Notes under the pieces: generated by a model
The model's database searches: none
Told to the model about the DNA's origin: nothing
Seen by the model: only the letters and a program-made list of their open reading frames with translations
Assembly (NCBI GenBank): GCA_964620965.1
Contig: CAZUHV010000003.1
Location: forward strand, 98,093 to 162,092
Reading direction: 5' to 3'
Source: an uncultured Pseudomonadales bacterium
GTDB lineage: Bacteria > Patescibacteriota > Microgenomatia > UBA1400 > PJMF01
Length of the DNA stretch: 64,000 nucleotides
Shown here: piece after piece, positions 16,758-43,418 of the stretch
Numbering within the stretch: the first letter of the stretch is position 1
Layout of the letters: the number at the start of each line of letters is the position of its first letter
Position numbers and translations under genes: made by a program

Positions 16758-16760
16758 TAT

Positions 16761-17324: not shown

Positions 17325-17349
17325 TCCAAGTAGTGCCGGTCACATCTTT

Positions 17350-21700: not shown

Positions 21701-24700
21701 TCTCCAGTTGCTGCAGTAACAATTGCAACAGGTGCATCTCCAACTGTTAGTGCTCCGTTTACATGAAGTCTTGTTTGTGGAGTAGAGGTAGATAAACCAA
21801 TATTTCCACCTGCTTCAACAAACATCACGTTTCCTGAGACTCCTTCTTCAATTAAGCTGAATCCGTTGAGTGCATTCCAGTCGTTTGCCCAACTCCAGTC
21901 GTGTCCATCTACATCTGTGTTTTCCATTCTGATTCTGCTATCTCCTGGATCAGCAATATGCAAGATTGTTCCTGGAGCAGTGGTTCCAATACCGATATTC
22001 CCACTAACAATGGACATATAGTAAGAGTTAGATATATATGAATGACCAAAGTTGATTGTATTTCCAATTCCACCTCCCGTCATAATATTTAGTCCGCCCC
22101 CATAGCTTGAGATTAGATTTGTTCCTGCAAAGGAAGAAGAGTTTGCATCAGAGTAACTTGATAAAGTTAGACTATTATCTCCACCTGCTACAAGGAGTGT
22201 AGTTGCTGCAGATGTTCCACTTGCTGTGTTATTTATTGCAACGGAAGTTAGAGCATCTTGATTTTTTTCTACAACCAAAAGCCTGCTTGGAGCAGTGGTT
22301 CCAATACCAACATTTGCTCCATCTATAACCAAGTAGTCATCTCCATATAAACCAATTCTTGCATCATAGTCTGTTCCGCCAATATCATTTTGGAAGTCCA
22401 GGTGAGGAATTCCACCGCCGCTTGTAAGTTCAATTGCATAGTTTCCACTTAAATCTTCTCCAGTTCGGAATCCAGGTCCGTTTGGAGTTGAATCCCTTCC
22501 AACACCTACAACATGTAGTTTTGAATCAGAGGTAGTGGTTCCAATACCAATGTTCCCCTCATGGTACATATTTCCACCTTCAGAGTAGACAGAGTAGTTA
22601 GAGGAGCTTCCAACATTCATATTGGCGATTTGTATACCTTTAAGGTGGTTGATTGTTCCACCACTAACACCTGGTGTGTACACTCTAACTAGTGCTAAGT
22701 TATCAACTATTGCTCCAGTGTAGACATCTGCGGCAGAGGTAAGGCCTTCTGAGTATGAAGTTGTGCCTCCATTTCCCCAGAACTTAAGTTGTGAAGAGTT
22801 TCCTTGTAATCCAGACAAAGTTCCAGAGGTGTGTGTTGTGCCAGTGACAGTTCTATATCCATATGCAGTCATTGCTCCAGAAACAGATTGAGTTATTTCA
22901 TTCATAAAGCCAATATAATCACCTGAACCAGAAGAGTTTGTTTTTACAACATGTAACTGAGAGGTTGGGCTTGTAGTTCCAATACCTAAATTCCCTGTAT
23001 CAGTTAGTCTCATTAGTTCGGTACTGGCATTATGAAGGAACTTAAAAGCATGGTTTGAACCATCATTATCAGCATCCATAGTAAAGTTAATATCTTGGTC
23101 ACTTTTAATTTCAGCTACTCCTGTGTCTCCGCTAAAGTACAGTTCTACACCTGCAGAGTTTGCTATGTCTAATTTCGCAGCTGGAGTAATAGAACCAATA
23201 CCGACATTACCACCATCAAGAACAGTGAAGACTTCTGTAGATCCATCAAATAAGTTAAGGATATCTTCGGTTGAGCTATTGCGAACGTCAAGTCTTGCAC
23301 CTGGAGTTGTGGTTCCAATACCTGCATTACTTGCAAGTACCATAGAAGTTGTGCCACCAGCAGGATCAACATAATAGGAACTATTGCTCACATCAGAAAA
23401 TCTTTCTGCGTATAAATATCCAGTATTTGCCATTCTAAATCTAGTTACACCTGCAGAGTTACTTGCTGTAAGAATATCCTGATCCCCAAGTTCTTTGAGT
23501 AAGACCAATGCTTTTCCTGTTACTGCAGTATTAACTTCAAAGCCATGTGTTGGGGTTGCAGTTCCGATACCAACTTTACCAATATTATCAATTACTAGTC
23601 TTTCAGTTCCAGCAGTATCAAATCTGATGTAGTCTTCGTCTGCAGACTCCTCAACCTGAATTTTTGTATCTCCGTCTGCATCAGAAATACCAGAAGCTAT
23701 TATGTCTCCTGAAGAATAAATATTTGTGAACCTTCTTGAAGCAGAGCCAAGAGAATAGGTATCGTCTGCTGTTGGGCCAATGTTTCCGGCAACTTCGAGT
23801 AAGAAACTTGTTGGGGCAGTGGTTCCAATACCGACGTTTCCTGTAGAAGTAATCACAAACTCTGCGGTTGCATCTGCGTCTGGATCAAAGCCGAAGTAAT
23901 TATCTGTGGTGTTGTAAGTAAGGATTCCTTCATCACCTGAATTACCAATATGGATACTTGCTCCTTTTACATACAAGGAATCCCATCTTACGGAATCTGA
24001 ACCTAAACTACTTGCTCCGTCTGAAGCAGGAAGCAGATCATCAGATAGAATGAAATTAGAAGAATCCCATCTAAGATATTCTGTGCCTGCATTGCCAAAG
24101 TACAAATAGTTTGCAAGCTCTATTTCTCCAGCAACGTCGAGTTTTTGACCTGGAGTCGTGGTGCCGATACCAATATTGCCTGCATCTGTAATTACCATAT
24201 CTGGAGAAACTAAACTTCCTCCTCCCGTGAAACGGAGACTCCCGTCATTGTACTGCCCAAGTCCTGCAGGGTTTGGTGTGCCATCATTATCACTTTGGAA
24301 GAATAGTGAAGCATCATTAGCAGAGCCAACGTTTGTATCTGTTGTTATGAATAATTGACTTGCACTGCTTGTTCTATGAATTTGTAATGCTGAAAGTGTT
24401 GTGTTGGTGCCAATACCGATATTAGCATTAAGACCATCAAGGAAGAACGCGTTAGCATTGGTATCAGATTCAATTCTAAAATCTGAGTCATTGCCTTGTT
24501 CGTTGAATACAGCAGAACCGTTAGAGTAGAGTTGGATATCAGCAGAGGCTGTAGAAGTGCCACCAATAGCCAAATCAACTACAGAAGCATATTCGTTTTT
24601 AGGATGGAGTACATTAAGAGTATTAGCCCAAAGAGTTGCACTTGTTGCAATAGAAGCAGGATCAGTCCAGGTCATTGCACCACCACCAGAAGAGGTGAGG

Positions 24701-27700
24701 AGATATCCAGAAGTGCCAGCATTACCAGCCACTCTAATTGCGTCTGTCAAATTAAATTCCCCGACTAGGTCAAGTGCATATCCTGGAGCTGTAGAACCAA
24801 TTCCGACGTTGCCATTTGCATCAATGGTTACTTTTTCGGTTCCAGCGGTTACTATACCAATAGTATCTATCGCAGGTCTGTACAATCCAGTGTTAGTGTC
24901 ACTTGCAAATGAGAATGTTGGTCCACCAACAGTTCCATTACCTGCATAGTAGGTTCGAGCCGTTACATCGTTGTCTACTGATACATCTCCATCTTCATCA
25001 ACAGTAAATCTTGTAGAATCCGCATCTGTCCCAATTTGGAATAGTATTTGGTTTGGAGTAGGGCTATTTTGGAAAATATTTAGGTTAGCAACTGGTGTTG
25101 CGGTGCCGAGTCCAATGTTACCATCAGAACCTTGAAAGAAGAACGCGTTGGCATTTGTGTCTGATTCAATTCTAAAGTCAGAGTCATTGCCTTGTTCGTT
25201 GAATACAGCAGAACCATTAGAGTATAGTTGGATATCAGCAGAGGCAGTAGAGGTGCCACCGATAGCTAAATCAACAACAGAAGCATATTCGTTTTTAGGA
25301 TGGAAGACATTTAATGTGTTTGCCCAAAGGTTAGCTCCAGAACCTAAGGTACTTGGGTCAGTCCAGGTCATAGCACCACCAGCAGATGAAGTGAGGAGGT
25401 ATCCAGAAGTACCAGCATCACCTGCAACTCTAATTGCATCTGTGAGGTTGAATTCGCCAACTAAATCAAGAGTGTATCCTGGAGAGGAGCTACCAATACC
25501 AACATTACCACCATTTGCAGAAAGGATGACAGCATCTGTTGCAGCATCACCGATAAGTAGGTTTCCAGTATTGTTCATGATGTAGGAGTTTGTGCCGTCA
25601 TGGTATAGCTCTAAATCTTGTCCTTCACCAAGTATGATGTTTCCACCACCACTGGTTCCACCTGCTACCCCGTCGCCATCTTCATCTAAAATCCAGTCTC
25701 CAGCCTCACCCCAAATGCCATAGTTATTCGAAGAAGCTGCTGTGATAGCAGTCATATACAGACCATATAAAGTTTGGAAGGAACCACCCCCTGTATCACT
25801 AATTGTTTGTAATCTAAAACCATGTCCAACGGCTACGTTTCCTGATCCAGATAGGTACATATTTGCGTTATACGCAGTTCCATAGGTAATTGTTCCAGCT
25901 CCAGAATTAGTAAATGCTCCAGTAACAGCAGTTCCATTTGTTAAAGTTCCAGCAGTTCCTTGATAGTTGATTGATCCTTGAACACCAGAAAGACCGGAAA
26001 GTGTATTACTTGATCCACTAGGGGTTGTTGCAGAACCAGAAATAGCATTATATGCAGATGCAGCACTATCTATACCATAGACACTTACTCCCAATGCATT
26101 TTGAGTGCTACCTCCGGTATAGCTTGAGACGTATCCAATAGATGCAGCTCCTGTAGAAGAGTTACCTGCACTAGTAGTAATGTTGAGGGGAGCAGTAGGG
26201 CTAGTACTGCCGATACCTACGTTTCCTGCAAAATAGTTTTTTGTGCTACTGCCAGATTGATATACACCATAACTACTAGAAGAGTTGTTTGCAATATCAA
26301 CTGCTCTAAAGTCAGCTGCGCTTGTAAGAGTTGGGTTAATATAAACACCTCTGGTAATTGCAGTTGTTCCACCTGTTTGGTTAATAGTAGATCCAAAATA
26401 GAGACCGTTATAAGAGATATCTTTTGTTGCTGCATTTGGAGAAAATGATTGAGCAACTTTAACTCCATTAACTATGCTGCCAACCAAATTATTTGTAGGG
26501 TCGAAAGTTATTGTATTTGCTAGATCTAGGCCTCCGATATTGCTTGAGTTATTTGTAATATTTTGTGTGGTAGAAAGTTTAATGCCACTTGCATTTGAAA
26601 TAGTTCTACCAGTGTAGAGTTCTAACCCAGCAGTAGTTGTAGTAGTGAGTGCTGATGGGTACATGACAAAACCATTACTGCTTGTTCCAGGAGTATTAAA
26701 CAAGTAAGTATCTGAGGTGTCATCGTAGTATAAGGAAAGCTGTCCCCCAGAACTAACAACGTCGTTAAAAAAAGTAAATCTGTTAATACGGAATGAGTTT
26801 CCACCACTATTGCCTAGTGTACCAATACCTATATTTCCTCCGACAGAGCCTACTTGAAGTTGTGAGGTTGGGTTTGTTGTTCCAATTCCCAAGTTTCCAC
26901 CATTAAAGTATGAACTTCCATTACTATTAAGAGTAATATCTTGGTTCGAAGAGGCATCATAGATAAATAATTGTTGATCTACACCAGATCTAAACATTCT
27001 AGTTTGTCCATATTCGGAACTTAAATAAAGAATTCCATAACTGCTTGCTCCAGTTCTAGCTTCAACTTTACCTCCATAAATATCTGTTGAAAGTTGGAGC
27101 ACAGCATTTGTTGAATAGTCATTGCTTAATTCAAATTTAGAACCTGGTGTTGAAGTTCCAATACCAATATTTCCATCAGAACCCTGAAGGAAAAAGGCGT
27201 TAGCATTTGTGTCTGATTCAATTCTAAAGTCAGAGTCATTGCCTTGTTCGTTGAATACAGCAGAACCATTAGAGTATAGTTGGATATCAGCAGAGGCAGT
27301 GGATGTACCACCAATAGCTAAATCAACAACGCTTGCATATTCATTTTTAGGATGAAGGACATTAAGGGTATTAGCCCAAAGATTAAAACCAGAACCTAAA
27401 GTGCTTGGGTCAGTCCAGGTCATTGCGCCACCACCAGATGAGGTTAGTAAGTATCCAGAGGTTCCGGCGTCGTTGTTTGCATATAGTCCTGAGGTGATGT
27501 TTACTGCTCCATTAACATCAAGTTTTCTTGTAGGACTAATAGAGCCAATTCCTAGATTTCCACTAGCGTTAATCACACTCAAGGCTGTTCCTGCACTATC
27601 TTGCCACTCTTGGATATTTGCAGTACCACTTGGTCCTCCTTTGACAACTAAGCCTTTGCCTCCAGCATATGTCGCAGAGATAGTAGCAGTGTTAGCAGCA

Positions 27701-30700
27701 AGATCGCCACTAACATCAAGCCTTGCACCTGGAGTTGTGGTTCCAATACCTGCATTACCTGCAAGAGTCATAGAAGTTGTGCTTCCAGCAGGGTCTACAT
27801 AGTAAGAATCATTACTAATATCGGAGAATCTTTCTGCATATACGTATCCAGTATTTGCTATTCTCATTCTAGTAGTGCCGCTTGAGCTTGCTGTGAAAAT
27901 ATCTTGGTTACCTGTTTGGTTTAGGATTGCTAAAGCTTTACCTGTTGCTGCACCATCAATATTGAGTAGTCCGATTGGGGTTGCAGAACCAATCCCAACA
28001 TTTCCTAGACCATTAACAATAAACTCTGTTGTTGGAGTACCATCATAGTCGCTTATAAGTTCTAGTAAGCTCCAGTTAGCGGTTGGTGATTGAGCAGATC
28101 TTCCAAGTATTACAGGACCTGTAGGGGTGGCACTTCCATTTGTTCTAGAGAAGGCTCCAACAGCAGCACCAGGTATGTTGGTAACACTTGAATTAACACT
28201 CATTGCACCTACAGAACCAGATTGTAATTCTGTAGCAGTGAACTCTGATCTTCCACGTCCCATCATTACAAACATTGTGCTTTCGTCGCCATCAATAAAA
28301 CGAAATGCAACATGATTGGATCCCAGTGATGTTCCTGTATCTTGTGTTTTTGCTTGGAATGTTATTCTTCCTGCTCCGTTACCATTATCGGCCTGGCTAC
28401 CAACTAGTTTTAGAGCTCCATTATATGTGCTTCCTCCATTAACTATACCAGTTATTAGTAATCCACCATTACTAGAATTATTGATCCCGATTCTTCCAAA
28501 AGTATCGGCTGGAAGTACTGTTGTAACACTATGTGTAATACTTGAACTAGAAAGATCAAGACCTGGAGTTGTACTACTTTGTAGCTCTAGTTTGTTTGTT
28601 GGGTTAGTAGTGCCAATCCCAACATTTCCACCAAAATAAGCTTGGCCATTAGATTGTAAGTGTATATCTGCAGAAGCAGTAGAAGTACCACCTAAAACTA
28701 AGTCAACTATGCTAGCATACTCATCTTTAGGATGTAGTACATTAAGAGTATTTTCCCACCAGCCAGCCCCAGTAATATCATCTGGATCAGTCCAGGTGTT
28801 GGCACCACCACCAGAAGAGGTTAGGAAGTATCCAGTTGTCCCAGCGTCTCCAGCTATTCTGATTGCGTCTGTTAGATTGAGCTCACCGGTAATTTGGGTG
28901 TTGCCAACAACGTCAAGTTTATATCCAGGAGAAGCAGATCCTATCCCCACATTGCCACTGCTGTTAATTGCAAAAATATCACCGTTACTTGCTGCACTAC
29001 TTCTGATTTGGAAGTAATCAGCTGTTGGTGTTGCACCACCTTTGAAGTACGCAACAGGAGAGGTAACAGAAGCAGCATTTTGAACGACTTTAAAAGAAGC
29101 GTCAACATAGTTGAGAGAGATCCCAACACCTCTAGAAGTTCCTACAGTACCACCGATAAGAGAAATATCTCCAGCAGACATACCAGTGCCAACGTTATAT
29201 CCAAAGTCCATTCTGGTAGCATATCCACCAGAAGTAATAGAGGAATTAGTAGAGTTAGTAGCCATGTAGATAGCAGCGGTACCAGAAGGACCAGCACTGA
29301 TATTTAGTCTACCGGCCCCAGTGTAAGAAGAACCAATACCAACATTACCATCATTTGCGATAATAAATTGAGTAGTACCAGAAGCAGAGGCAGTAAAGAT
29401 AGCTTGATTTCCAGTTTGATTTAGAATAGTGAGAGCTTTCCCTGTTGCTGCGCCGTTTACATTTAAAAGACCAATAGGAGCGCTACTACCAATTCCAACA
29501 TTGCCTCCAAAGTATGATTGTGTAGTTCCAGCAGTATAGATTGCATAGTTGTTTGTACCTTGAGTCAAAGCTTCTACGTATAAACCGTATAGGTTTGGAA
29601 TAGTTCCGCTTGTTATTGTGTTTCTAGCTTGGAAAAATGCGGTACTACCTGTGACTGATCCTAAAGCTCCGTGTAGTCTAGACTGAATACCAATAAGTTC
29701 TCCAGTAACTGTGGAAGATGCGTTATTTGTCACTATGCTTCTGCTACCATATTCATTACCAATTGAATATGCACCAGAGATATTTGTATAAACATATGAT
29801 CCATCTATTGTTGATGTAGTGCTTGCATCTGCATACACAAATGCAAGTATACCGGCGGCTCCGCCACTTCCTGTTTTATGTAAATCTATGTTGTAACCAT
29901 AAACAGAACTAGAATTATTTATTGTTCTTGAACCTGCTAAGATTGATCTGCTTGCTTGTCCTGGATCTGCGAAAAGGTAGATCCCATTTGATGGAATTAT
30001 TCCAAGTAAACCAGAGGAATCTACTCCAAATGTTGTTTCTTTAGATCCTGTAGGCTGAGTTATTTTGAATTGTGGACTTGTTGTTGAACTTACCTCTAAT
30101 TTTGCACTAGGAGCAGTAGAACCAATTCCGACATTGCCACCAAAGTAAGCTTGACCATTCGATTGTAAGTGGATATCTGCAGAGGCAGTGGATGTGCCAC
30201 CAATAATAAGATCAACTACAGAAGCATACTCGTCGGTAGGATGATACACATTTAAAGTATTTGTCCAAAGAGTAGAAGCAACTAATGAAGCAGGGTCAGT
30301 CCAGGTCATAGCACCACCGCCGGATGAAGTGAGGAGGTAGCCGGAAGTGCCAGCGTCGCCAGAAGAACGAATAGCATCTGTTAGATTGAGTTCACCAGTG
30401 ATTTGGGTGTTGCCAACAACGTCAAGTTTATATCCTGGAGAAGAAGATCCTATCCCCACATTGCCACTGCTGTTAATTGCAAAAATATCACCGTTACTTG
30501 CTGCACTACTTCTGATTTGGAAGTAATCAGCTGTTGGTGTTGCACCACCTTTGAAGTACGCAACAGGAGAGGTAACAGAAGCAGCATTTTGAACGACTTT
30601 AAAAGAAGCGTCAACATAGTTGAGAGAGATCCCAACACCTCTAGAAGTTCCTACAGTACCACCGATAAGAGAAATATCTCCAGCAGACATACCAGTGCCA

Positions 30701-33700
30701 ACGTTATATCCAAAGTCCATTCTGGTAGCATATCCACCAGAAGTAATAGAGGAATTAGTAGAGTTAGTAGCCATGTAGATAGCAGCGGTACCAGAAGGAC
30801 CAGCACTGATATTTAGTCTACCGGCCCCAGTGTAAGAAGAACCAATACCAACATTACCATCATTTGCGATAATAAATTGAGTAGTACCAGAAGCAGAGGC
30901 AGTAAAGATAGCTTGATTTCCAGTTTGATTTAGAATAGTGAGAGCTTTCCCTGTTGCTGCGCCGTTTACATTTAAAAGACCAATAGGAGCGCTACTACCA
31001 ATTCCAACATTGCCTCCAAAGTATGATTGTGTAGTTCCAGCAGTATAGATTGCATAGTTGTTTGTACCTTGAGTCAAAGCTTCTACGTATAAACCGTATA
31101 GGTTTGGAATAGTTCCGCTTGTTATTGTGTTTCTAGCTTGGAAAAATGCGGTACTACCTGTGACTGATCCTAAAGCTCCGTGTAGTCTAGACTGAATACC
31201 AATAAGTTCTCCAGTAACTGTGGAAGATGCGTTATTTGTCACTATGCTTCTGCTACCATATTCATTACCAATTGAATATGCACCAGAGATATTTGTATAA
31301 ACATATGATCCATCTATTGTTGATGTAGTGCTTGCATCTGCATACACAAATGCAAGTATACCGGCGGCTCCGCCACTTCCTGTTTTATGTAAATCTATGT
31401 TGTAACCATAAACAGAACTAGAATTATTTATTGTTCTTGAACCTGCTAAGATTGATCTGCTTGCTTGTCCTGGATCTGCGAAAAGGTAGATCCCATTTGA
31501 TGGAATTATTCCAAGTAAACCAGAGGAATCTACTCCAAATGTTGTTTCTTTAGATCCTGTAGGCTGAGTTATTTTGAATTGTGGACTTGTTGTTGAACTT
31601 ACCTCTAATTTTGCACTAGGAGCAGTAGAACCAATTCCGACATTGCCACCAAAGTAAGCTTGACCATTCGATTGTAAGTGGATATCTGCAGAGGCAGTGG
31701 ATGTGCCACCAATAATAAGATCAACTACAGAAGCATACTCGTCGGTAGGATGATACACATTTAAAGTATTTGTCCAAAGAGTAGAAGCAACTAATGAAGC
31801 AGGGTCAGTCCAGGTCATAGCACCACCGCCGGATGAAGTGAGGAGGTAGCCGGAAGTGCCAGCGTCGCCAGAAGAACGAATAGCATCTGTTAGATTGAGT
31901 TCACCAGTGATTTGGGTGTTGCCAACAACGTCAAGTTTATATCCTGGAGAAGAAGATCCTATCCCCACATTGCCACTGCTGTTAATTGCAAAAATATCTC
32001 CTGTAGCTGAACCATTTGTAGCAATTTGCAAGTAGTCAAGTGTTGGGCTAGATTCATGCTCAAATCTTACTAGTGCAATGTCGGAGTTGCCAGTGAAACC
32101 AACTACCCCAAAGCTGGCAGCTGTTGTAGGTGCAGCAGGACCAACAAAAGCTCCATTTGCGCCATTTCCTCCCGCAGTGAGTTGCATTACTAGTTCGGAA
32201 GTAGAAACATAAAAATATTGTGATGAACCAGATCTATACATTAGAGAGTCGTCGGAGTTGCCTGTGCCTGTTCCAATAGAAGCCTCTGTAGTTCCTGCTT
32301 GTTGAAATAGGATTCTAGTTTCTTGACCATGAGTTTGGTGGTTCATTTTAATGTACTGGTTAGCATCGCTGTAGAGTTCTAGTAATGCAGTTGCATTGCT
32401 AGTGCCTATACCAACATTTCCTGAAGTATTCACAGAAGATAAAACAGTCCCAGCACTATTTTGCCATTCTTGAATATTAGCAGTGCCACTTGGGCCTCCT
32501 TTTGCTATGAGTGCAGTGCCACCTGCATAGGTAGCGGAGAAGGTTGCTCCAGGTGCATGTAAGTAACCTTCTAGGTCTAAATCTGACTGAACAATAACTT
32601 TACCCGTTCCATCGGGAGCGAGAGTAATGTTGCCATTTGAACCCGAAGATGTCTGTAAAACTAAAGCTTGAGCTTCAATAGTGAAAGATCCTGAGGTTGC
32701 TTTAAGAGAAGGCGAAACTTCCCCTAACAAGACTTGTCCACCGGCATCCATTGTGAGAATTGTGTTTGTGGTTGCCGCTCCTGTGGCAGAAACAGGGTAT
32801 CCTTGAACGGTTTCAGAGTTGAGAGCATAGGCGACGGTTTTGATTGATTGTCTTGGGTCAAGAGTTTCAGATTCAATCTCAACTTCTAACCAGACGTTTG
32901 AGTTCTCAGTAAAGACATTTTCTGTGATTTCAGATCCACAGTCATCTCCTAGACCAACATTAAAAATACCATCTTGATCTGGAGTGACGCTACAAGTTCC
33001 AGAACTCCAGAGTTGAGTTCCTCCAGAACTGTTGTCATACAGTCTAAAAGCCATATCAGTTGAGGTAGTTATTGGGTTTTGTGCGGCATCTGTCAATCTA
33101 CCTTGAAAGGAAAGCTCTCGATTTGGTCGTACAGGGGTACTTGGATACGCAAATGGAGTAGGTGCTTGCTTGATAAATTGTTGATAGCCCAATACACCAA
33201 GTCCAATTGCAAACACAACCATCATTACCAGGTTTAAATATGGCAAAAATTGCTTATTTCTTTTGGTATTTATTTGGTTTGCGAAGTCTTTTAAGCTAGA
33301 TCTAATGCCTGCATATATTTTTCGAGTTTCCTCACTATTTGTAAGTTCTTTCTCTGATTTTGTTGTATTACCTGATTTTTTTTCTAACTCTTCTGCTGCA
33401 AAGTCTGGAACTGGGAGTTTCCAACCATGCTTTACTTGGTTTTGGTTTGTTTGGTGAGCATGAACAAGGGTATTTGGCTTGAGTTTTAATTCAAATTTTT
33501 GTGGAGTAGAGGTTGTAAATTTTGCATTTGGGATTATTGAGTGAGTAGATACAGTTTCTCTCTGAGAGGAAACTGTGGTTGTTTGATTACCAACTCGGCT
33601 ATGATCTTGAGCAATAACTTCTTGAGTTTCAAAGAGCTGTCCTTGAAGTAAGTGGATCCATGAAGAGACTCTCTCAATGAGACTTCTGTCTTGAGCCCAG

Positions 33701-34674
33701 AGAGAAAATTGAGTAATACTTGTCACTTTTCTTTTGATACTACTTGGTTTGAGTCCGGTTTTTCTCTGTAAGACAACAAAATTCTCTATATTTTCTTGAG
33801 TAATAATCTTATCCAGATCAGGTTTGCCTGTGGACTCGAAGAATTGGTTGAGGTCAGATTTGTAGTTTTTAATTGTTGCTTGTGAATGTCCATCGATTTC
33901 AAGACTAATCAAGAAGTTCTCAAGTTCTGTTTGAGCATTTTTTTGGTGTGATGCAGAGTTTTGGGTAGAGACAGAACTTGTTTTGTGTAGATAATTTGGT
34001 TTTCCTGTGACTAGGGATTCTAAGTCTGAAATCCAGAATGAAGCATCTTGAACAATTTTTTCAGTTTCTGCCCAGAGGGCAAACTGAGATATACTCGAGA
34101 GTTTGCGTTTTATCGTAGACAACTTGAGTCCTGAATCGAGTTGATTATGAACAAAATTTCTTAAATTCTCTGGTTCAAAGAGGTTTGAAATTTGTTTTGT
34201 TTGAGAAAGACTAACAAACTGTTGAATATCACTGCGGTAGTTTTTGATGGTTGAGTCGGAGCGATTATCAGCTTTGATTGAAGATAAAAACTCATGAAGG
34301 TAAATATCAATTTCGAGTGGAGTGTATTCTGCAACAAACTTTTTTAAGAGGACTGCCTGCTTATGAGCGACATTTTCGGCAGTTAAGAACTTTTCTAGGT
34401 CATCAATCGACCAATGTTCTGCCCATTTTGGATCATCAATCTTGCGCTTATTGATAAATACAATAAATTTTTCTGTTGTCAACAAAGCCAAATCTTTGGA
34501 GACATGGTGACTTTCCAAAAATGTGGAAAAGACAGAGAGGAGGCTGGTGATATATCTGTTTTGGGCAGTCATCTTTTTTTGTTGCTTTAGTACCTTTTTT
34601 CTCAGACGTATTAGACGTCTTAGATAGCGCATATTTAAGTTTAGATAACTCGAGTTCACTTGGCAATACCTCAA
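18715..34674 (-). CDS. Giant (5319 aa) single-pass surface protein. The N-terminal ~480-aa cytoplasmic part has two phage-integrase SAM-like (core-binding) domains; then a TM; then a huge repetitive tail-fibre-like ectodomain with an internal Peptidase-S74-type intramolecular chaperone domain and a ~640-aa coiled/β tail
   Basis: An uninterrupted 15.96-kb ORF. The N-terminus has S.STIKNYRSDIQQFVSL...GLKLSTIKRKLSSISQFALWA and a second copy ATIKNYKSDLNQFFES...GLKPSSIKRKVTSITQFSLWA, matching the NTxxxYRxDL..F...G.sxxTxxRxLSxxxxFxxW pattern of XerD-type N-terminal domains. The TM is FLPYLNLVMMVVFAIGLGVLGY. The ectodomain has dozens of G(N)VGIG(T/S)xxP..KLDVxG and TSGYLLTSSGGGAMTWTDP modules. The S74-like segment SSIKNKTNVENIQENTSKKLYDLRPVKFEYKDSLGTIQYGLIAEEVAQTIPEMAFYDTDGSPAGVSYQFLAPLLLSEIQKHQIKLKNLE lies at about 20470-20740. 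Confidence 0.8.
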   Translation of the reverse strand: MRYCQVNSSYLNLNMRYLRRLIRLRKKVLKQQKKMTAQNRYITSLLSVFSTFLESHHVSKDLALLTTEKFIVFINKRKIDDPKWAEHWSIDDLEKFLTAENVAHKQAVLLKKFVAEYTPLEIDIYLHEFLSSIKADNRSDSTIKNYRSDIQQFVSLSQTKQISNLFEPENLRNFVHNQLDSGLKLSTIKRKLSSISQFALWAETEKIVQDASFWISDLESLVTGKPNYLHKTSSVSTQNSASHQKNAQTELENFLISLEIDGHSQATIKNYKSDLNQFFESTGKPDLDKIITQENIENFVVLQRKTGLKPSSIKRKVTSITQFSLWAQDRSLIERVSSWIHLLQGQLFETQEVIAQDHSRVGNQTTTVSSQRETVSTHSIIPNAKFTTSTPQKFELKLKPNTLVHAHQTNQNQVKHGWKLPVPDFAAEELEKKSGNTTKSEKELTNSEETRKIYAGIRSSLKDFANQINTKRNKQFLPYLNLVMMVVFAIGLGVLGYQQFIKQAPTPFAYPSTPVRPNRELSFQGRLTDAAQNPITTSTDMAFRLYDNSSGGTQLWSSGTCSVTPDQDGIFNVGLGDDCGSEITENVFTENSNVWLEVEIESETLDPRQSIKTVAYALNSETVQGYPVSATGAATTNTILTMDAGGQVLLGEVSPSLKATSGSFTIEAQALVLQTSSGSNGNITLAPDGTGKVIVQSDLDLEGYLHAPGATFSATYAGGTALIAKGGPSGTANIQEWQNSAGTVLSSVNTSGNVGIGTSNATALLELYSDANQYIKMNHQTHGQETRILFQQAGTTEASIGTGTGNSDDSLMYRSGSSQYFYVSTSELVMQLTAGGNGANGAFVGPAAPTTAASFGVVGFTGNSDIALVRFEHESSPTLDYLQIATNGSATGDIFAINSSGNVGIGSSSPGYKLDVVGNTQITGELNLTDAIRSSGDAGTSGYLLTSSGGGAMTWTDPASLVASTLWTNTLNVYHPTDEYASVVDLIIGGTSTASADIHLQSNGQAYFGGNVGIGSTAPSAKLEVSSTTSPQFKITQPTGSKETTFGVDSSGLLGIIPSNGIYLFADPGQASRSILAGSRTINNSSSVYGYNIDLHKTGSGGAAGILAFVYADASTTSTIDGSYVYTNISGAYSIGNEYGSRSIVTNNASSTVTGELIGIQSRLHGALGSVTGSTAFFQARNTITSGTIPNLYGLYVEALTQGTNNYAIYTAGTTQSYFGGNVGIGSSAPIGLLNVNGAATGKALTILNQTGNQAIFTASASGTTQFIIANDGNVGIGSSYTGAGRLNISAGPSGTAAIYMATNSTNSSITSGGYATRMDFGYNVGTGMSAGDISLIGGTVGTSRGVGISLNYVDASFKVVQNAASVTSPVAYFKGGATPTADYFQIRSSAASNGDIFAINSSGNVGIGSSSPGYKLDVVGNTQITGELNLTDAIRSSGDAGTSGYLLTSSGGGAMTWTDPASLVASTLWTNTLNVYHPTDEYASVVDLIIGGTSTASADIHLQSNGQAYFGGNVGIGSTAPSAKLEVSSTTSPQFKITQPTGSKETTFGVDSSGLLGIIPSNGIYLFADPGQASRSILAGSRTINNSSSVYGYNIDLHKTGSGGAAGILAFVYADASTTSTIDGSYVYTNISGAYSIGNEYGSRSIVTNNASSTVTGELIGIQSRLHGALGSVTGSTAFFQARNTITSGTIPNLYGLYVEALTQGTNNYAIYTAGTTQSYFGGNVGIGSSAPIGLLNVNGAATGKALTILNQTGNQAIFTASASGTTQFIIANDGNVGIGSSYTGAGRLNISAGPSGTAAIYMATNSTNSSITSGGYATRMDFGYNVGTGMSAGDISLIGGTVGTSRGVGISLNYVDASFKVVQNAASVTSPVAYFKGGATPTADYFQIRSSAASNGDIFAINSSGNVGIGSASPGYKLDVVGNTQITGELNLTDAIRIAGDAGTTGYFLTSSGGGANTWTDPDDITGAGWWENTLNVLHPKDEYASIVDLVLGGTSTASADIHLQSNGQAYFGGNVGIGTTNPTNKLELQSSTTPGLDLSSSSITHSVTTVLPADTFGRIGINNSSNGGLLITGIVNGGSTYNGALKLVGSQADNGNGAGRITFQAKTQDTGTSLGSNHVAFRFIDGDESTMFVMMGRGRSEFTATELQSGSVGAMSVNSSVTNIPGAAVGAFSRTNGSATPTGPVILGRSAQSPTANWSLLELISDYDGTPTTEFIVNGLGNVGIGSATPIGLLNIDGAATGKALAILNQTGNQDIFTASSSGTTRMRIANTGYVYAERFSDISNDSYYVDPAGSTTSMTLAGNAGIGTTTPGARLDVSGDLAANTATISATYAGGKGLVVKGGPSGTANIQEWQDSAGTALSVINASGNLGIGSISPTRKLDVNGAVNITSGLYANNDAGTSGYLLTSSGGGAMTWTDPSTLGSGFNLWANTLNVLHPKNEYASVVDLAIGGTSTASADIQLYSNGSAVFNEQGNDSDFRIESDTNANAFFLQGSDGNIGIGTSTPGSKFELSNDYSTNAVLQLSTDIYGGKVEARTGASSYGILYLSSEYGQTRMFRSGVDQQLFIYDASSNQDITLNSNGSSYFNGGNLGIGTTNPTSQLQVGSVGGNIGIGTLGNSGGNSFRINRFTFFNDVVSSGGQLSLYYDDTSDTYLFNTPGTSSNGFVMYPSALTTTTTAGLELYTGRTISNASGIKLSTTQNITNNSSNIGGLDLANTITFDPTNNLVGSIVNGVKVAQSFSPNAATKDISYNGLYFGSTINQTGGTTAITRGVYINPTLTSAADFRAVDIANNSSSSYGVYQSGSSTKNYFAGNVGIGSTSPTAPLNITTSAGNSSTGAASIGYVSSYTGGSTQNALGVSVYGIDSAASAYNAISGSATTPSGSSNTLSGLSGVQGSINYQGTAGTLTNGTAVTGAFTNSGAGTITYGTAYNANMYLSGSGNVAVGHGFRLQTISDTGGGSFQTLYGLYMTAITAASSNNYGIWGEAGDWILDEDGDGVAGGTSGGGNIILGEGQDLELYHDGTNSYIMNNTGNLLIGDAATDAVILSANGGNVGIGSSSPGYTLDLVGEFNLTDAIRVAGDAGTSGYLLTSSAGGAMTWTDPSTLGSGANLWANTLNVFHPKNEYASVVDLAIGGTSTASADIQLYSNGSAVFNEQGNDSDFRIESDTNANAFFFQGSDGNIGLGTATPVANLNIFQNSPTPNQILFQIGTDADSTRFTVDEDGDVSVDNDVTARTYYAGNGTVGGPTFSFASDTNTGLYRPAIDTIGIVTAGTEKVTIDANGNVGIGSTAPGYALDLVGEFNLTDAIRVAGNAGTSGYLLTSSGGGAMTWTDPASIATSATLWANTLNVLHPKNEYASVVDLAIGGTSTASADIQLYSNGSAVFNEQGNDSDFRIESDTNANAFFLDGLNANIGIGTNTTLSALQIHRTSSASQLFITTDTNVGSANDASLFFQSDNDGTPNPAGLGQYNDGSLRFTGGGSLVSPDMVITDAGNIGIGTTTPGQKLDVAGEIELANYLYFGNAGTEYLRWDSSNFILSDDLLPASDGASSLGSDSVRWDSLYVKGASIHIGNSGDEGILTYNTTDNYFGFDPDADATAEFVITSTGNVGIGTTAPTSFLLEVAGNIGPTADDTYSLGSASRRFTNIYSSGDIIASGISDADGDTKIQVEESADEDYIRFDTAGTERLVIDNIGKVGIGTATPTHGFEVNTAVTGKALVLLKELGDQDILTASNSAGVTRFRMANTGYLYAERFSDVSNSSYYVDPAGGTTSMVLASNAGIGTTTPGARLDVRNSSTEDILNLFDGSTEVFTVLDGGNVGIGSITPAAKLDIANSAGVELYFSGDTGVAEIKSDQDINFTMDADNDGSNHAFKFLHNASTELMRLTDTGNLGIGTTSPTSQLHVVKTNSSGSGDYIGFMNEITQSVSGAMTAYGYRTVTGTTHTSGTLSGLQGNSSQLKFWGNGGTTSYSEGLTSAADVYTGAIVDNLALVRVYTPGVSGGTINHLKGIQIANMNVGSSSNYSVYSEGGNMYHEGNIGIGTTTSDSKLHVVGVGRDSTPNGPGFRTGEDLSGNYAIELTSGGGIPHLDFQNDIGGTDYDARIGLYGDDYLVIDGANVGIGTTAPSRLLVVEKNQDALTSVAINNTASGTSAATTLLVAGGDNSLTLSSYSDANSSSFAGTNLISSYGGGLNIMTGGGIGNTINFGHSYISNSYYMSIVSGNIGIGTTAPGTILHIADPGDSRIRMENTDVDGHDWSWANDWNALNGFSLIEEGVSGNVMFVEAGGNIGLSTSTPQTRLHVNGALTVGDAPVAIVTAATGDIIAGDSTGGFQFDASANDMYAQQSTANSTGVHFNIRKSRGSAASPSVVTTGDDILLLRAYGRSASSTWSEAGRITFDTEGTISGAIVPGILRFYTQSTAGSLTERMVIDSDGNVGIGSTSPGQKLVVSGNIQIGAAGYIDDDATMGENSDDWIHLNGYIELKSNTSNYGIVLRDDSSTDYFGITQEGGYSILADSNTSVNYFLRGNGTNVDIAGNLGIGTTTASQVLDVVGGGIVIEDNTSSSTNAYKIERGGTDYSVLWMDTDQVYLNNPFNNVMNFRTNNTTRLTIGSTGIIYAPGVYNTTSSTRNVYVNSDGQLGYLSSSIKNKTNVENIQENTSKKLYDLRPVKFEYKDSLGTIQYGLIAEEVAQTIPEMAFYDTDGSPAGVSYQFLAPLLLSEIQKHQIKLKNLENNNIMFDSIGGIVITQSGSDYIVTESKNNNVLSTIIGARSAILGIIQAGLTNTKELIVENTATIKNLSAETITINGQSLVSYIQSVVGNQTASNNSTLVSPVGNDTVITATNSGKVKFSDGTKTTAEINKDGNLSLLGNLNSKDVITNSIAASGSSTLGSLLVQGDATVSGTLTAQNSKLGNLLANEVSISGTLVAQNATISGTAQVGTLLANEVTAASARISALEAGIAQLESVRATTADLVTATVSGTLYANSIYDFENKVATTLQQPGLLDILLGTNESTSSASFMEDLYATVNKTEFNASSSADLDLSFAELSMTSDDVVLTGSALFVEKYLKVNGGAYVSDSLAVGNDLFVGDSMLIADGLIRYTTADPANQILKIQPEGQGSIELLAGIVTIDDSGKVTVNGDLDVTGNAKIAGTLLTDMLKPTEFGNPLQVQVAGVDTQTNEVKKSRFEIINEVGTPVATFSAEGNAAFAGKVDIAGGIGLESQNLGSSDTNELSTNKTSGKATIKAGSDKVTIKSGIVTNDSLVYVTAVGSTDNKVLFVKSQAQDDPNTPENEGEFVVGFDSPASADVSFNWWIVN
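20470..20740 (-). other. Peptidase S74-like (tail-fibre/endosialidase intramolecular chaperone) domain, internal to the giant protein
   Basis: The Ser...Lys spacing (SSIKNK), the ...LRPVxFxYK...GLIAEEVxxxxPExx...G...VxYxxLxxLLxxxIQ pattern, and a coiled-coil end all match the autoproteolytic C-terminal chaperone domain family. Confidence 0.55.
28880..31990. repeat. Near-perfect tandem duplication (2 x 1509 bp) inside the giant gene, flanked by more diverged copies of the same module
   Basis: DNA at 28,9xx re-occurs at +1509 (30,4xx) with near-identical bases, and a third copy at 31,9xx begins to diverge. The antisense track ORFs 28894..29307 and 30403..30816 have identical 137-aa translations apart from 2 aa. 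At protein level the ~503-aa block ...DIFAINSSGNVGIGSSSPGYKLDVVGNTQITGELNLTDAIRSSGDAGTSGYLLTSSGGGAMTWTDPASLVASTLW... occurs twice verbatim. Confidence 0.85.
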
Positions 34675-35174
34675 GAATTCCAGACTTTTATGTCAATGGG
34701 AAAATGCATGAAAAAATGCACATTTTTGCAATTAATTTTTATGTTTTTCATGATTTTCATGTATATCAAATAGATTCAAATGTTTGTGTATTTTTTGTTT
34801 TTACAGGTTAGAACTTGGTAATTTATGCTAAAAACAAAGCGCTAAAAATAGTATGTGAATCAGTTTAAAAAAGTGATATTATGTGAAGGAAAAAATAAAC
34901 GAAAGAGTATTAAACATTGTTTCCAGGTTAAAAAACAGTTTTTAATACAAATTCGTGGAAAAGTGTGGCTGAAAAGAGTGCTTCGGTACAAAAATGTGGA
35001 AAAGTGTTTAAAATTAGTATTAATATAATATATTTATATTTTTGCAGTAAAGGCAACTATTTAAAATAAACTAAGCATATTGATATGTATATAACATTTT
35101 TGCTAGATCAATAACATAAAACAAAAGACGAAATTTTGATTTAAATTATAAAGCTATCAACGATTAAATGAGAT

Positions 35175-35921
35175 ATGAAGAAAAATACCCAAAAAATACT
35201 GCTTTCACTGTACTCAGAGATAGGGACGCTTAAATATAGAGTCCCTACGAGTAATTTAGAGTGTGTGGTGCCAGAGCTATCTGCTGGAGGCTTTAGATCT
35301 TTGCTTCATGTATTAAAGAAGCAGGGTGTGATTACTTCACAACGGGTACTCGGGGTTACAACAGTTAGTATTACTCAATATGGAATGACTCTTCTAGAAA
35401 GCGAATTTCCGGCTTTATCTTCCAAATGGGATGAATGGACAGGACAATGGAGCTGTCTAGTCTTTATGGAGTCTCCTTTCTTTGATAAACAGTTTAGATA
35501 CTTACGCAAACTCTTGTTGTCTGAAGGGGCTTTGGCAATCAGTAGAGGTGTGTATATTAGTCCTGGTGGTTTTTCTGATGTTGTTATTAAAGAGTGCAAA
35601 GCGAGCTATTTTTCTAGTGTACTCATCTTTTCGGTTGCAGATTGGAAAATAGCAGCTGACTCTTCATTTATCATAGAAAAATATGGGCTTTTAGACATAG
35701 CAGAAAACTACTCTGGAATTAGCAGTGATGTAACTAGATTGCTAAAAAATACACTAGATAAAAAAGGATTGACTGATAGACAAAAAGAAAATATACATTT
35801 GGTATATGACCGATTGATTGATATTTTACTTGAGGATCCGGGTTTTTGTACATTTTACTTTAGAGAAGTGGAATCTATTAAAACTTTGCTTTCTAGATTG
35901 AACTCTGTAATTGCTCTCTAG
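35175..35921 (+). CDS. Putative PaaX-like winged-helix transcriptional regulator
   Basis: ELSAGGFRSLLHVLKKQGVITSQRVLGVTTVSITQYG resembles the PaaX N-terminal wHTH (…GISERAVRTALSRMVKQGWL…Y.LT..G). It is divergent from the giant gene across a 500-bp repeat-containing intergenic region. Confidence 0.35.
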   Translation: MKKNTQKILLSLYSEIGTLKYRVPTSNLECVVPELSAGGFRSLLHVLKKQGVITSQRVLGVTTVSITQYGMTLLESEFPALSSKWDEWTGQWSCLVFMESPFFDKQFRYLRKLLLSEGALAISRGVYISPGGFSDVVIKECKASYFSSVLIFSVADWKIAADSSFIIEKYGLLDIAENYSGISSDVTRLLKNTLDKKGLTDRQKENIHLVYDRLIDILLEDPGFCTFYFREVESIKTLLSRLNSVIAL

Positions 35922-38913: not shown

Positions 38914-38928
38914 GTCTACAGAGATCTA

Positions 38929-40077
38929 TCATAGGGCGTTCTCTTCGTCTCCTTTGGTTTGCATCTCTTCGATTTGTGATTCTAGCTCTTTAATTCTTTG
39001 CTCATCCATTTTCTTTCTGTGGTTGAGGTGTCTTTTTACAGAGAAGACAATGAAAGCAAGGATCATGAGTAGGGCGAATCCAGCGAGGATAATCTTAAGA
39101 GGTAGAAGCCAGAAACTTGTGTTAGCTACAACAATAGAGCCTGTTGATCCATAGCTCATGGTAAGTTTAGCTTTGTATAAGCCCCAGCCCCAGATTCGAT
39201 CCCATTGACCAGTGAAGTCTCTGCTATAGAGAGGAAAAATATTTTTTGGCTCTACAGCAATTGTTTCAACTTTTTGGTTGAATAAATTATAAATTTCAAC
39301 GCTCATTTGAGGAGTAATGTGGACATCAGAGTTATTTTCTACAGTGAAATTAAAGGGAACGGGACCATATTCAGTAAAGCTTGGGAAAGTAAAGTCTCTG
39401 ATGTAAGCTTCTTCGTTGATAGGTCCATCAACAACAACATAGAGGAGCGTTCCAACTCTTTGGTTGATAGCTGCACCAGATCCACTATTTGTTACAGAGT
39501 ATTCATCTGTTGTTTCTCCAGGCTCGTGTAAAATCATTGCATAGTGTCCTCCAGGAAGAGCATCTTCTGGAACCTCAATGAGTACATTTATTCCAACAGT
39601 AGATTTTGATGGGATTTGGTGTTCAGTTGGAGTAATTGTGAGCCATGAAGCAAGACTCCATCTATTTGAAGCGCTATCATCTATAGCTATTGGAGTTTCC
39701 CCATCTACATCAAGAATAAAGTCTTGTGCTGAAGTGATAACAGAAACTGGCTGTTCTGAAATGTTTCTGACACGGATTTGAACTTGAATTTTTTCTCCAG
39801 GAGCTGCTGTGAGAGAACCATCATCCCCAAGTCTTGGAGGAATTGCAGTTAATGAGATTTGATCTTGAGCAATTGTTCTAGTTGCGTCTGTTTCGTCATA
39901 TAAAACTGGTTCTGCAGTCGGCTCTAGTACCACATTTTCAGTTTCTGTAGGTATAAATGGATTGCTTGTGGTCTGAGCAAGTGCACCAGATTTAAAACTT
40001 AAAAAAACTGAAGAAACCAAGACGAACCCAGTGGTAAGAGCAATGTTTTTGTAGTTTTTTTGTTGGGCAGTGTTCAT
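38929..40077 (-). CDS. Secreted protein with N-terminal signal peptide, C-terminal TM anchor and cytoplasmic coiled-coil tail
   Basis: The signal ends ...SGALAQ. The C-terminus is WLLPLKIILAGFALLMILAFIVFSV + KRHLNHRKKMDEQRIKELESQIEEMQ. Confidence 0.45.
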   Translation of the reverse strand: MNTAQQKNYKNIALTTGFVLVSSVFLSFKSGALAQTTSNPFIPTETENVVLEPTAEPVLYDETDATRTIAQDQISLTAIPPRLGDDGSLTAAPGEKIQVQIRVRNISEQPVSVITSAQDFILDVDGETPIAIDDSASNRWSLASWLTITPTEHQIPSKSTVGINVLIEVPEDALPGGHYAMILHEPGETTDEYSVTNSGSGAAINQRVGTLLYVVVDGPINEEAYIRDFTFPSFTEYGPVPFNFTVENNSDVHITPQMSVEIYNLFNQKVETIAVEPKNIFPLYSRDFTGQWDRIWGWGLYKAKLTMSYGSTGSIVVANTSFWLLPLKIILAGFALLMILAFIVFSVKRHLNHRKKMDEQRIKELESQIEEMQTKGDEENAL

Positions 40078-40093
40078 TTATTTGTTCCTTGTT

Positions 40094-41566: not shown

Positions 41567-41700
41567 TTTTTTGCTCTAGATAGGCATTTTTTAGTTTTTA
41601 CTTTTTATTTTTTTCAATACGAAAAATAAAGACTTTCTGCCTTGTAGTTTAATAATATAGAGTTTTGCAAAACTATACAATATGCATTTTTTCTTATTAA

Positions 41701-42666: not shown

Positions 42667-42682
42667 AAAATCTGATATCCTG

Positions 42683-43414: not shown

Positions 43415-43418
43415 AGTG

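Follow-up and report, generated by a model that had tools for sequence, protein, structure and literature searches.

Does a giant surface protein of an ultra-small bacterium (Patescibacteria/CPR) carry recombinase-type DNA-recognition domains on its cytoplasmic end, and if so, what are they for? The protein is encoded in the window, i.e. the whole 64,000-nucleotide stretch of DNA that was analysed (contig CAZUHV010000003.1, assembly GCA_964620965.1). A preliminary description, made from the sequence alone, proposed two tandem phage-integrase N-terminal SAM-like (core-binding, CB) domains, no catalytic tyrosine-recombinase domain, and then a transmembrane (TM) helix and a giant ectodomain. We find that this observation is correct. 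The features of the locus are the following, with residues numbered along the full open reading frame (ORF) unless counted from M35.

18715..34572, minus strand: giant fibre gene, 5,285 codons from ATG 34572 to the stop at 18715-18717.
34321..34572, minus strand: N-terminal predicted four-helix domain of 84 residues (MTAQNRYITS..., residues 35-118), specific to one subfamily.
34048..34320, minus strand: core-binding domain 1, CB1 (residues 119-209).
33943..34047, minus strand: short trailing helices and a disordered inter-domain linker (residues 210-244).
33634..33942, minus strand: core-binding domain 2, CB2, plus a trailing helix (residues 245-347).
33247..33633, minus strand: low-complexity basic cytoplasmic linker (residues 348-476, pI ~9.6) ending in a conserved juxtamembrane stretch.
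33184..33246, minus strand: single transmembrane helix LPYLNLVMMVVFAIGLGVLGY (residues 477-497), N-in.
18718..33183, minus strand: extracellular repetitive fibre (~4,820 residues, GNVGIGT repeats).
20581..20736, minus strand: Peptidase_S74 domain, the intramolecular chaperone of phage fibres and spikes (residues 4647-4698).
34573..35174, no strand assigned: intergenic control region of conserved length, with a promoter match (TTGCCA 34661-34666 and TAAACT 34638-34643), a leader triple repeat at 34602-34625, TTCACATAMTA boxes at 34849-34859 and 34877-34887 (box variants are of the type TTCACATA[A/C]TA), and 21-nt direct repeats at 34946-34966 and 34987-35007.
35175..35921, plus strand: divergent PaaX-fold winged-helix regulator gene (248 aa).

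A start codon downstream of the two domains had been named in advance as a result that would overturn the description, and we therefore examined the start. The ORF 18715..34674 on the minus strand has 5,319 codons when counted from an upstream TTG. However, the homologues all begin at MTAQxxYITS or MPAxxxY, which corresponds to the ATG at 34572 (residue 35), and a TTGCCA-N17-TAAACT promoter match is found at 34666-34638. Both CB domains are thus downstream of the true start.

The lack of a significant profile match to integrase SAM-like domains was the other stated ground for rejection, and it does not apply either. Pfam PF02899 (Phage_int_SAM_1) matches with 60.8 bits (gathering cutoff 22.3) and E=1.6e-16 in two stretches, the best at residues 94-172 counted from M35, and PF13495 gives E=5.3e-9. 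Among the NCBIfam profiles (TIGR02224 and TIGR02225), XerC is found with E=2.8e-20 and XerD with E=8.5e-20, but only profile positions 2-90 of 295 and 2-105 of 290 are matched, with 72 bits against cutoffs of ~330. The XerA profile matches the second copy, at 218-302 counted from M35. CB1 (~119-209) and CB2 (~245-335) are located where the preliminary description had placed them, and its motif (S/A)TIKNY(R/K)SD...IKRK(L/V)(S/T)SI(S/T)QF is present in both copies. A comparison of CB1 with CB2 by hhalign gives E=6e-43 and 40% identity. The N-terminal 84-residue domain has no Pfam match; we tested whether it could be a degenerate third CB domain, but hhalign gave a probability below 3%, and the idea was rejected at sequence level.

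By sequence, the relationship to solved recombinases is weak. A phmmer search of the head against PDB sequences found nothing at E<=0.01, and the family profile gave only weak XerA, XerD and integrase hits (E 0.05-0.13). The structure was also predicted and compared with solved CB domains; a comparison with the CB domain of XerD had been suggested beforehand. The AlphaFold model (pLDDT 88.9) has helices within 3-82 with pLDDT >90, helices within 87-170 for CB1 and within 213-313 for CB2, while pLDDT falls below 50 at model residues 192-207. Foldseek matches the model to the CB domains of lambda Int, Cre, Tn1549 Int and XerA. The matches to 3nrw, 2oxo, 2kd1, 2kob and lambda Int (1z19) have an rmsd of 1.8-2.4 A over 86-98 columns and a target TM-score of up to 0.76. 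The E-values are modest (0.05-0.7), although the probability is 1.0. With a pTM of 0.61, the model gives no reliable inter-domain geometry.

The catalytic domain PF00589, with its RKHRH pentad and tyrosine nucleophile, has no hit anywhere in the 5,285 residues, and in relatives only 50-140 residues are found between the CB domain and the TM helix. Ordinary integrases scanned in the same way show both PF02899 and PF00589, the latter at E~1e-47. The protein has one hydrophobic helix and no N-terminal signal peptide. Across 136 family members the K+R counts are 2.67 on the N side and 0.95 on the C side of the helix, which indicates an N-in topology. The linker is poorly conserved except for W-x-LP and the stretch just before the TM helix, and the motifs LPYxNL and FGYxQF are conserved. 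The fibre begins with a conserved AYPTxPxRPNRxLSFQGRLTD, shared by hundreds of proteins. The Peptidase_S74 domain (PF13884, E=6.5e-8, 33.2 bits against a cutoff of 22) is located ~620 residues before the C-terminus, and the same domain is found mostly 300-670 residues before the C-terminus in 31 members (28 proteins from the search plus 3 locus ORFs). A Ser...Lys pair (SSSIKNK) is present at the start of the match, but trimerisation and autoproteolytic release of the chaperone were not assayed.

Next, we asked whether homologous giant proteins in related genomes carry the same N-terminal domains, a check that had likewise been proposed. A word-index search returned few members, but an exhaustive search and a genome scan show a large family. 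It is carried by 66 species-representative genomes, almost all titled as or resembling Patescibacteria, and there are 531 representatives at E<=1e-30. Of the 153 proteins retained after the exhaustive search, 139 have one CB domain (88) or two (51) before a single TM helix, and 14 lack it. The N-terminal helical domain is present in many but not all members. One CB protein with a glycine-dehydrogenase C-domain (P0154) looks like a chimeric contig and was ignored. In public records members are labelled "site-specific integrase, partial", which is wrong.

Over 66 sequences with ~20% mean column identity, the invariant or >=90% conserved polar residues (numbered from M35) are T108, N111, Y112, R113, S114, D115 and Q118 in helix B, and R156, K157, S160, Q163 and W167 in helix D. 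Helices A and C keep only core hydrophobic residues. The net charge is +5.1 for helices B and D, against +0.7 for the helix A and loop-plus-helix-C segments. The net charge of whole CB domains is uninformative, as they are about neutral (pI 6.1-6.8), like XerD. The signatures TI(K/R)NYRSDI and S(I/V)xR(R/K)xS(T/S) also occur in complete integrases with both CB and catalytic domains.

The divergent regulator gene is found 420-850 bp upstream in 62 of 66 loci. Three of the other four have 1.3 kb or less of upstream DNA, while one locus (L046), with about 2.7 kb, is unexplained. The AlphaFold model of the regulator (pLDDT 91) matches the full-length fold of E. coli PaaX, 8a39, with E=2.8e-7 over 265 columns, and also 3l09 and 3kfw, i.e. 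a predicted fold with a wHTH, a Cas2-like middle domain and a helical C-domain. PaaX_M is hit in 21 of 43 members, but the copy in the window is below the cutoff (19.6 against 24 bits). JGI names some members PaaX. The sequence identity to PaaX is ~17%, there are no phenylacetate genes nearby, and the ligand and operator are unknown.

The ~600-bp spacer between the two genes contains motifs conserved in position across 38-41 of 63 loci, above shuffled controls. Rfam found no family in the window or in the spacer, even at E<=1. A dif-like site was considered for TTCACATAA-N6-TTTTTTAAACT, but was rejected because the inner TTATG of the second arm is missing and the spacing varies between loci. 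An oriC was considered because of TTATCCACA-like boxes and because the TM6 record starts in this spacer, but it is not supported, as there is no GC-skew switch at 35 kb and no enrichment of boxes in the window (3 found, 2.4 expected).

What the analysis demonstrates is a type-II (N-in) membrane-anchored giant fibre, whose cytoplasmic head consists of a small helical domain plus two Xer-type CB domains and which, without a catalytic domain, cannot cut or join DNA. It also establishes that this head, with one or two CB domains, a single TM helix and a giant ectodomain recur in a large family found mainly in Patescibacteria, and that complete members carry a Peptidase_S74 domain near the C-terminus, as trimeric phage fibres do. 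The structural interpretation given in the preliminary description is supported by every test that could be run. Its remark that there is no obvious precedent holds only in the sense that no description was found in the searchable literature; the architecture itself is common in Patescibacteria. Of the two functions it suggested, a link to DNA or an anchoring or dimerisation module, neither is proven. The conservation pattern favours retained DNA binding, and a CB-less fibre paralogue in the same window argues against a mere export or anchoring role.

Everything beyond this is deduced, and our preferred explanation is tentative: the CB domains still bind DNA. In tyrosine recombinases CB is the DNA-site-binding domain (PMC8138268), and in XerH-difH the bundle inserts into the major groove and gives most base-specific contacts (PMC5241119). 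In the family studied here, the only invariant polar residues of the domain are in the corresponding helices B and D. The fibre would then be a membrane-tethered DNA-binding protein, probably a trimer presenting three to six CB domains. DNA binding, the target site and the effect on transcription were not assayed, and no experiment or structure shows DNA binding by this family. The most likely use would be to hold specific DNA at the fibre base, with the motif-rich control region shared with the PaaX-like regulator as the leading candidate. In that case synthesis or assembly of the fibre would feed back on expression of the locus, in the manner of ToxR- or CadC-type membrane-bound regulators. 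However, the adjacent wHTH regulator could account for all the conserved DNA boxes, which our data do not assign to one protein or the other, motif/domain co-distributions are confounded by phylogeny, and a membrane-tethered domain reaches DNA only if the locus comes to the membrane. The CB head appears to be an added function and not an export requirement, as a CB-less fibre paralogue with a plain signal-anchor is present in the same window and CB-less relatives occur elsewhere.

Other explanations are less likely. The CB domains might have been re-used to bind a cytoplasmic protein, either the PaaX-like regulator, which would be sequestered at the membrane when fibre protein is present, as PtsG sequesters Mlc, or a Xer recombinase. 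The co-occurrence of the regulator gene and the overall neutrality of the domains agree with this, and an invariant polar surface implies a conserved ligand without saying which. However, the conserved residues are the same as those kept in true recombinases, where the ligand is DNA, helices B and D are strongly basic, and we know of no precedent for a CB domain acting as a protein-binding module, nor did one appear in the literature searched. We consider this doubtful. A ligand-free role, in which the head is a cytoplasmic stopper, an oligomerisation knob or a folding and targeting aid and the CB fold is incidental, is unlikely. Some relatives lack the head, one or two copies are tolerated, and it precedes the signal-anchor, so it folds before export starts, but a stopper would not need about a dozen invariant polar residues on two helices at ~20% mean identity, and the paralogue is built without it.

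It is also unlikely, and pure inference, that the head is cut from the membrane by regulated intramembrane or juxtamembrane proteolysis, triggered by load or contact on the fibre, and then acts as a soluble regulator with a Notch-like or RsgI/anti-sigma-like logic. The long, flexible linker before a highly conserved TM and juxtamembrane segment, the conserved DNA boxes, and the fibre as an obvious contact sensor would fit, but no protease gene is conserved in the neighbourhood among the families examined and no cleavage motif was identified. An artefact, i.e. a truncated integrase pseudogene fused to a fibre gene by chance or by assembly error, or a mis-called start, is refuted by the family-wide conservation. 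Giant repetitive genes often break assemblies, many homologues are cut at contig ends, and a 1.5-kb, 99.9% identical tandem duplication is present inside this gene. However, the reading frame is continuous, the same fusion with a conserved start and order of parts occurs in 66 genomes and 139 of 153 proteins, and the CB residues are under evident purifying selection.

A more far-reaching possibility, unlikely but not excluded, is that the fibre is a contact or tension sensor wired directly to DNA. Attachment to a host cell would change the state of the trimeric fibre, and its three to six CB domains would be released by proteolysis or re-positioned, to bind the conserved repeat boxes of the locus, and possibly other sites, together with or against the PaaX-like regulator. 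This would be a bacterial Notch- or ToxR-like pathway built from a phage-fibre-like ectodomain and a domesticated recombinase DNA-reading domain.

Compared with XerC/XerD-type (simple) tyrosine recombinases, the domain is the same by profile and predicted fold and keeps the T-x-x-x-Y-R-x-D signature of helix B and the S-x-x-R signature of helix D, but it is duplicated in tandem, tethered to the membrane and fused to a ~4,800-residue ectodomain. RitA recombinases (recombinases in trio) also have two sequential CB domains (PMC8138268), but RitA keeps the catalytic domain and is a soluble enzyme of a mobile element. ToxR/CadC/TcpP-type membrane-bound one-component regulators have the same topology, with an N-terminal cytoplasmic domain of a DNA-binding type, one TM helix and an extracytoplasmic C-terminal part. 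Their DNA-binding domain is an OmpR-type winged helix and their outer part a small sensor domain, while here Pfam and NCBIfam give only integrase SAM-like hits for the cytoplasmic part. Phage tail fibres and spikes with a C-terminal Peptidase_S74 chaperone, such as endosialidase, share PF13884 near the C-terminus, a weak End_tail_spike similarity and a repetitive fibre body; the protein studied here is anchored in a cell membrane by an N-terminal signal-anchor, has a cytoplasmic head, and continues after the S74 domain. The very large surface proteins of CPR/Patescibacteria and the giant proteins of Omnitrophota (PMC13059738; bioRxiv 10.1101/2023.11.21.568195) are also very long, repetitive, membrane-anchored proteins of ultra-small, probably host-attached bacteria. 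Those reports mention adhesion-type ectodomains, and term searches found no mention of an integrase-type cytoplasmic domain in either.

As far as we could find, this would be the first described case of a tyrosine-recombinase core-binding domain used outside recombination. The annotation as "site-specific integrase" is a systematic error, and these genes could be miscounted as mobile-element markers. Patescibacteria are abundant, mostly uncultured and thought to live attached to host cells, and how they sense and manage attachment is largely unknown. In the large, conserved family defined here, the biggest surface protein of the cell carries a recombinase-derived DNA-recognition module on its cytoplasmic end, next to a PaaX-like regulator in nearly all loci and a motif-rich control region. 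This suggests a direct link between a cell-surface fibre and DNA, and gives a concrete, testable handle on surface-to-genome coupling in these organisms.

The interval 33230-34674 is the 5' end of a single minus-strand ORF, 18715..34674, which has 5,319 codons counted from an upstream TTG. In its translation, the integrase-type motif of the preliminary description is found twice, as STIKNYRSDIQQF...LSTIKRKLSSISQFALWA and as ATIKNYKSDLNQF...PSSIKRKVTSITQFSLWA. The true start is almost certainly the ATG at 34572 (ORF residue 35, 'MTAQNRYITS'), as homologues from databases and from 60-odd genomes begin with the same peptide. A promoter-like TTGCCA-N17-TAAACT lies at 34666-34638, so the upstream in-frame codons fall at or before the likely transcript start. 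A start codon located after the domains had been named in advance as an argument against the observation, but both domains lie downstream of this start.

To examine whether these regions are integrase core-binding (CB) domains, we compared them with profile databases, a significant match being the other condition set beforehand, and they are. Pfam PF02899 (Phage_int_SAM_1) obtains 60.8 bits against a gathering cutoff of 22.3, E=1.6e-16, with two matched stretches, and PF13495 also matches. The NCBIfam XerC, XerD and XerA profiles match at E=1e-14 to 3e-20, however the matches cover only the first ~100 of ~295 profile positions and the scores are far below the whole-protein cutoffs. The two copies are clearly related to each other, with an hhalign E=6e-43 at 40% identity. 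The structure prediction that had been suggested as a check was performed with AlphaFold2 for residues M35 to +316, using a 31-sequence alignment. The model has a mean pLDDT of 88.9 and shows a four-helix N-domain, a CB bundle (helices 87-170), a disordered 16-residue linker and a second CB bundle (helices 213-295). No catalytic domain exists, as PF00589 is absent from the whole protein, while three ordinary integrases recovered in the same genome scan show PF02899 plus PF00589 at E~1e-42 to 1e-47.

CB2 is followed by a 129-residue basic, low-complexity linker and then by one hydrophobic helix, ORF residues 477-497. Across 136 family members, the 15 residues before the helix contain on average 2.67 K+R and the 15 residues after it 0.95, and there is no N-terminal signal peptide. 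The head is therefore cytoplasmic and the remaining ~4,820 residues are outside. The ectodomain is a repetitive 'GNVGIGT' fibre, with a Peptidase_S74 domain at ORF residues 4647-4698 (33.2 bits against a cutoff of 22). The same domain is located mostly 300-670 residues before the C-terminus in 31 other members. In phage fibres and spikes this domain drives trimer assembly, and a trimeric fibre with three cytoplasmic heads is therefore an inference. Inside the giant gene there is a 1,509-bp (503-codon) tandem duplication (28936-32001, minus strand; copies 30445-32001 and 28936-30492), 99.9% identical at the DNA level. It is either very recent or an assembly effect, and a likely cause of contig breaks in relatives.

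Whether related giant proteins carry the same N-terminal domains had also been raised as a check. We scanned one genome per species (GTDB representatives) with the head alignment and obtained 80 loci. Among these, 66 hold long ORFs, up to >3,800 residues before the end of the DNA examined, with one or two CB domains followed by a hydrophobic helix, while the other 14 are ordinary 320-390-residue integrases of Chloroflexota and others. The record titles name Pacebacteria, Woesebacteria, Microgenomates, Paceibacterota or the Patescibacteria group; many are evidently mis-titled 'Pseudomonadales', and one is titled TM6. An exhaustive profile search of 1.84 billion cluster representatives identified 531 proteins at E<=1e-30. 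Of the 153 proteins then examined, 139 have a CB domain N-terminal to a single TM helix, 88 with one CB domain and 51 with two, and the lengths reach 7,697 residues. In one relative (P0011, 3,905 aa) the whole unit of N-terminal helical domain plus CB domain is duplicated (N-CB-N-CB) rather than the CB domain alone, suggesting that the two behave as one module in that subfamily. Public sources call members 'site-specific integrase, partial' or 'hypothetical', and no description of this architecture was found in the literature searched, including term searches within relevant papers.

We then examined the conservation in a 66-sequence alignment of heads with a mean column identity of 20%. The invariant or >=90% conserved positions (numbered from M35) are T108, N111, Y112, R113, S114, D115, I116 and Q118 in helix B, R156, K157, S160, Q163, F164 and W167 in helix D, and three core hydrophobic residues elsewhere, L92, L96 and F140. 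Helices B+D carry a mean net charge of +5.1, compared with +0.7 for the helix A and loop-plus-helix-C segments. In tyrosine recombinases the CB bundle inserts into the major groove and makes most base-specific contacts, as in XerH-difH (PMC5241119). In Cre and lambda Int, helices B and D are the contacting ones. The very motif TI(K/R)NYRSDI and the helix D pattern S(I/V)xR(R/K)xS(T/S) also occur in complete integrases. These integrases were retrieved through that motif, i.e. this shows that the motif exists in real recombinases, not how frequent it is. The simplest reading is that the DNA-reading surface has been kept.

The features surrounding the giant gene are the following.
13801-15912, minus strand: TPR protein.
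16095-18658, plus strand: three pilin-like genes (N_methyl motif; one T2SSG-like) and a PIN-domain gene, convergent with the 3' end of the giant gene.
34573-35174: spacer of ~600 bp between the fibre gene and the regulator gene.
34602-34625: leader repeat, ATCTAAgacGTCTAAtacGTCTGA.
34849-34859 and 34877-34887: two TTCACATAMTA boxes.
34946-34966 and 34987-35007: 21-nt direct repeats, TACAAAnnnGTGGAAAAGTGT.
35175-35921, plus strand: PaaX-fold winged-helix regulator gene (248 aa), divergent from the giant gene.
36796-44141, minus strand: six co-oriented genes of 240, 243, 321, 490, 382 and 705 aa.
44432-46969, plus strand: leucyl-tRNA synthetase gene (housekeeping), marking the edge of the conserved surface-protein cluster.
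53746-60114, plus strand: second large protein (2,122 aa) with the same fibre repeats.

The ~248-residue regulator gene is found divergently 420-850 bp upstream of the CB-fibre gene in 62 out of 66 loci. Three of the other four have 1.3 kb or less of upstream DNA, while one (locus L046), with about 2.7 kb, is unexplained. The product is a PaaX-fold regulator. PaaX_M hits 21 of 43 members, the AlphaFold2 model has a pLDDT of 91, and Foldseek matches E. coli PaaX 8a39 at E=2.8e-7 over the full length. JGI names some members PaaX, and a protein identical to the one in the window (P0159) is on record from NCBI and Logan assemblies. Further upstream, on the fibre strand, the six-gene cluster recurs in 34-45 of the 66 loci. 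Its 705-aa protein has Big_13 and CarboxypepD_reg domains, two others give weak WxLIP_PGBD (peptidoglycan-binding) hits and one a weak PrgI hit. The six genes are probably a surface-apparatus cluster. On the downstream side, the same pilin and TPR arrangement follows a related giant gene in a JGI contig (locus L084, 1-16798). In this contig a CB-less 4,265-aa relative (P0105) starts exactly where a preceding 5,609-aa Laminin_G_3 giant gene ends, which represents either tandem giant genes or one gene split by a frameshift.

The spacer keeps its length across loci and holds positionally conserved elements, among them the promoter match, the leader repeat, the TTCACATAMTA boxes and the 21-nt direct repeats, while no Rfam family matches it. 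The promoter is followed by a leader element, GTCTAATGAATCTGG, either with a TTAGAC inverted arm or as a triple 9-bp-period direct repeat. The triple form occurs in 11 of 63 loci and in none of 200 shuffles. An orientation-fixed central module reads TTCACATAMTA...TTTCTAAAC...ATTCACAAG...TGTGGATAA. Its first box, TTCACATAMTA, was scored in 38 of 63 loci and matches only twice in the 64-kb window, against 0.15 expected. Boxes of the GTTTTCCACA type are located nearer the regulator gene, in 41 of 63 loci. The computational analysis does not assign a binding protein to any of these elements. The leader element co-occurs with the N-terminal 84-residue domain, in 38 of 39 loci with the domain and in 6 of 24 without, a count that is not corrected for phylogeny. 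In a complete genome titled candidate division TM6, not Patescibacteria (CP011212, locus L064, 525-10412), a 3,296-aa family member with one CB domain begins 525 bp from coordinate 1. The origin of this record therefore falls in the equivalent of the conserved spacer; neither the taxonomy of the record nor the reason for the choice of origin was examined.

The observation made in the preliminary description, two tandem integrase-type domains at the N-terminus of a giant surface protein, is real and highly significant. Its structural interpretation, a cytoplasmic head without a catalytic domain followed by a TM helix and the ectodomain, is correct. The protein is not a tyrosine recombinase, as the defining catalytic domain was tested for and is absent, although the domain is a bona fide member of PF02899. 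Tandem CB domains have a precedent in the RitA recombinases (PMC8138268), but those keep the catalytic domain. In topology the protein resembles the ToxR- and CadC-type membrane-bound regulators, but with a different DNA-binding fold and a giant fibre in place of a sensor domain. The ectodomain resembles phage fibres that carry S74 chaperones. Large surface proteins of CPR bacteria have been reported (PMC13059738), without this head. Membrane-tethered DNA-binding proteins and giant CPR surface fibres are both known kinds of protein.

Other explanations for the head are possible, but we consider each of them less likely than a DNA-binding tether. The domains might form a protein-binding module, for example sequestering the PaaX-like regulator, which is the least unlikely of these alternatives. 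Proteolytic release of the head as a soluble factor appears more doubtful. A ligand-free role as a stopper or in assembly is also improbable, and it is weakened by the invariant polar surface. It is further weakened by the second large protein in the window, a fibre paralogue whose repeats show 30-67% identity to parts of the giant protein and which has a plain N-terminal signal-anchor (residues 13-31) but no CB domain. An artefact is excluded by the conservation.

The analysis establishes the identity of the domains, the absence of catalysis, the N-in topology, the family-wide conservation and the neighbouring regulator gene. In contrast, DNA binding by the CB domains is inferred, as is the trimeric state of the fibre, in which case avidity from three to six domains could compensate for the weak affinity expected of isolated CB domains. 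That the head is a functional DNA-binding tether is only a tentative conclusion, and the specific feedback role is less certain still; the function is open but testable. The architecture is widespread in Patescibacteria. Its most likely use is that a membrane-tethered DNA-binding head contacts specific sites, with its own control region as the leading candidate. Co-transcriptional translation and membrane insertion of a 16-kb gene would in any case hold the locus at the membrane. This would give feedback between fibre production or state and transcription, alongside the PaaX-like regulator.
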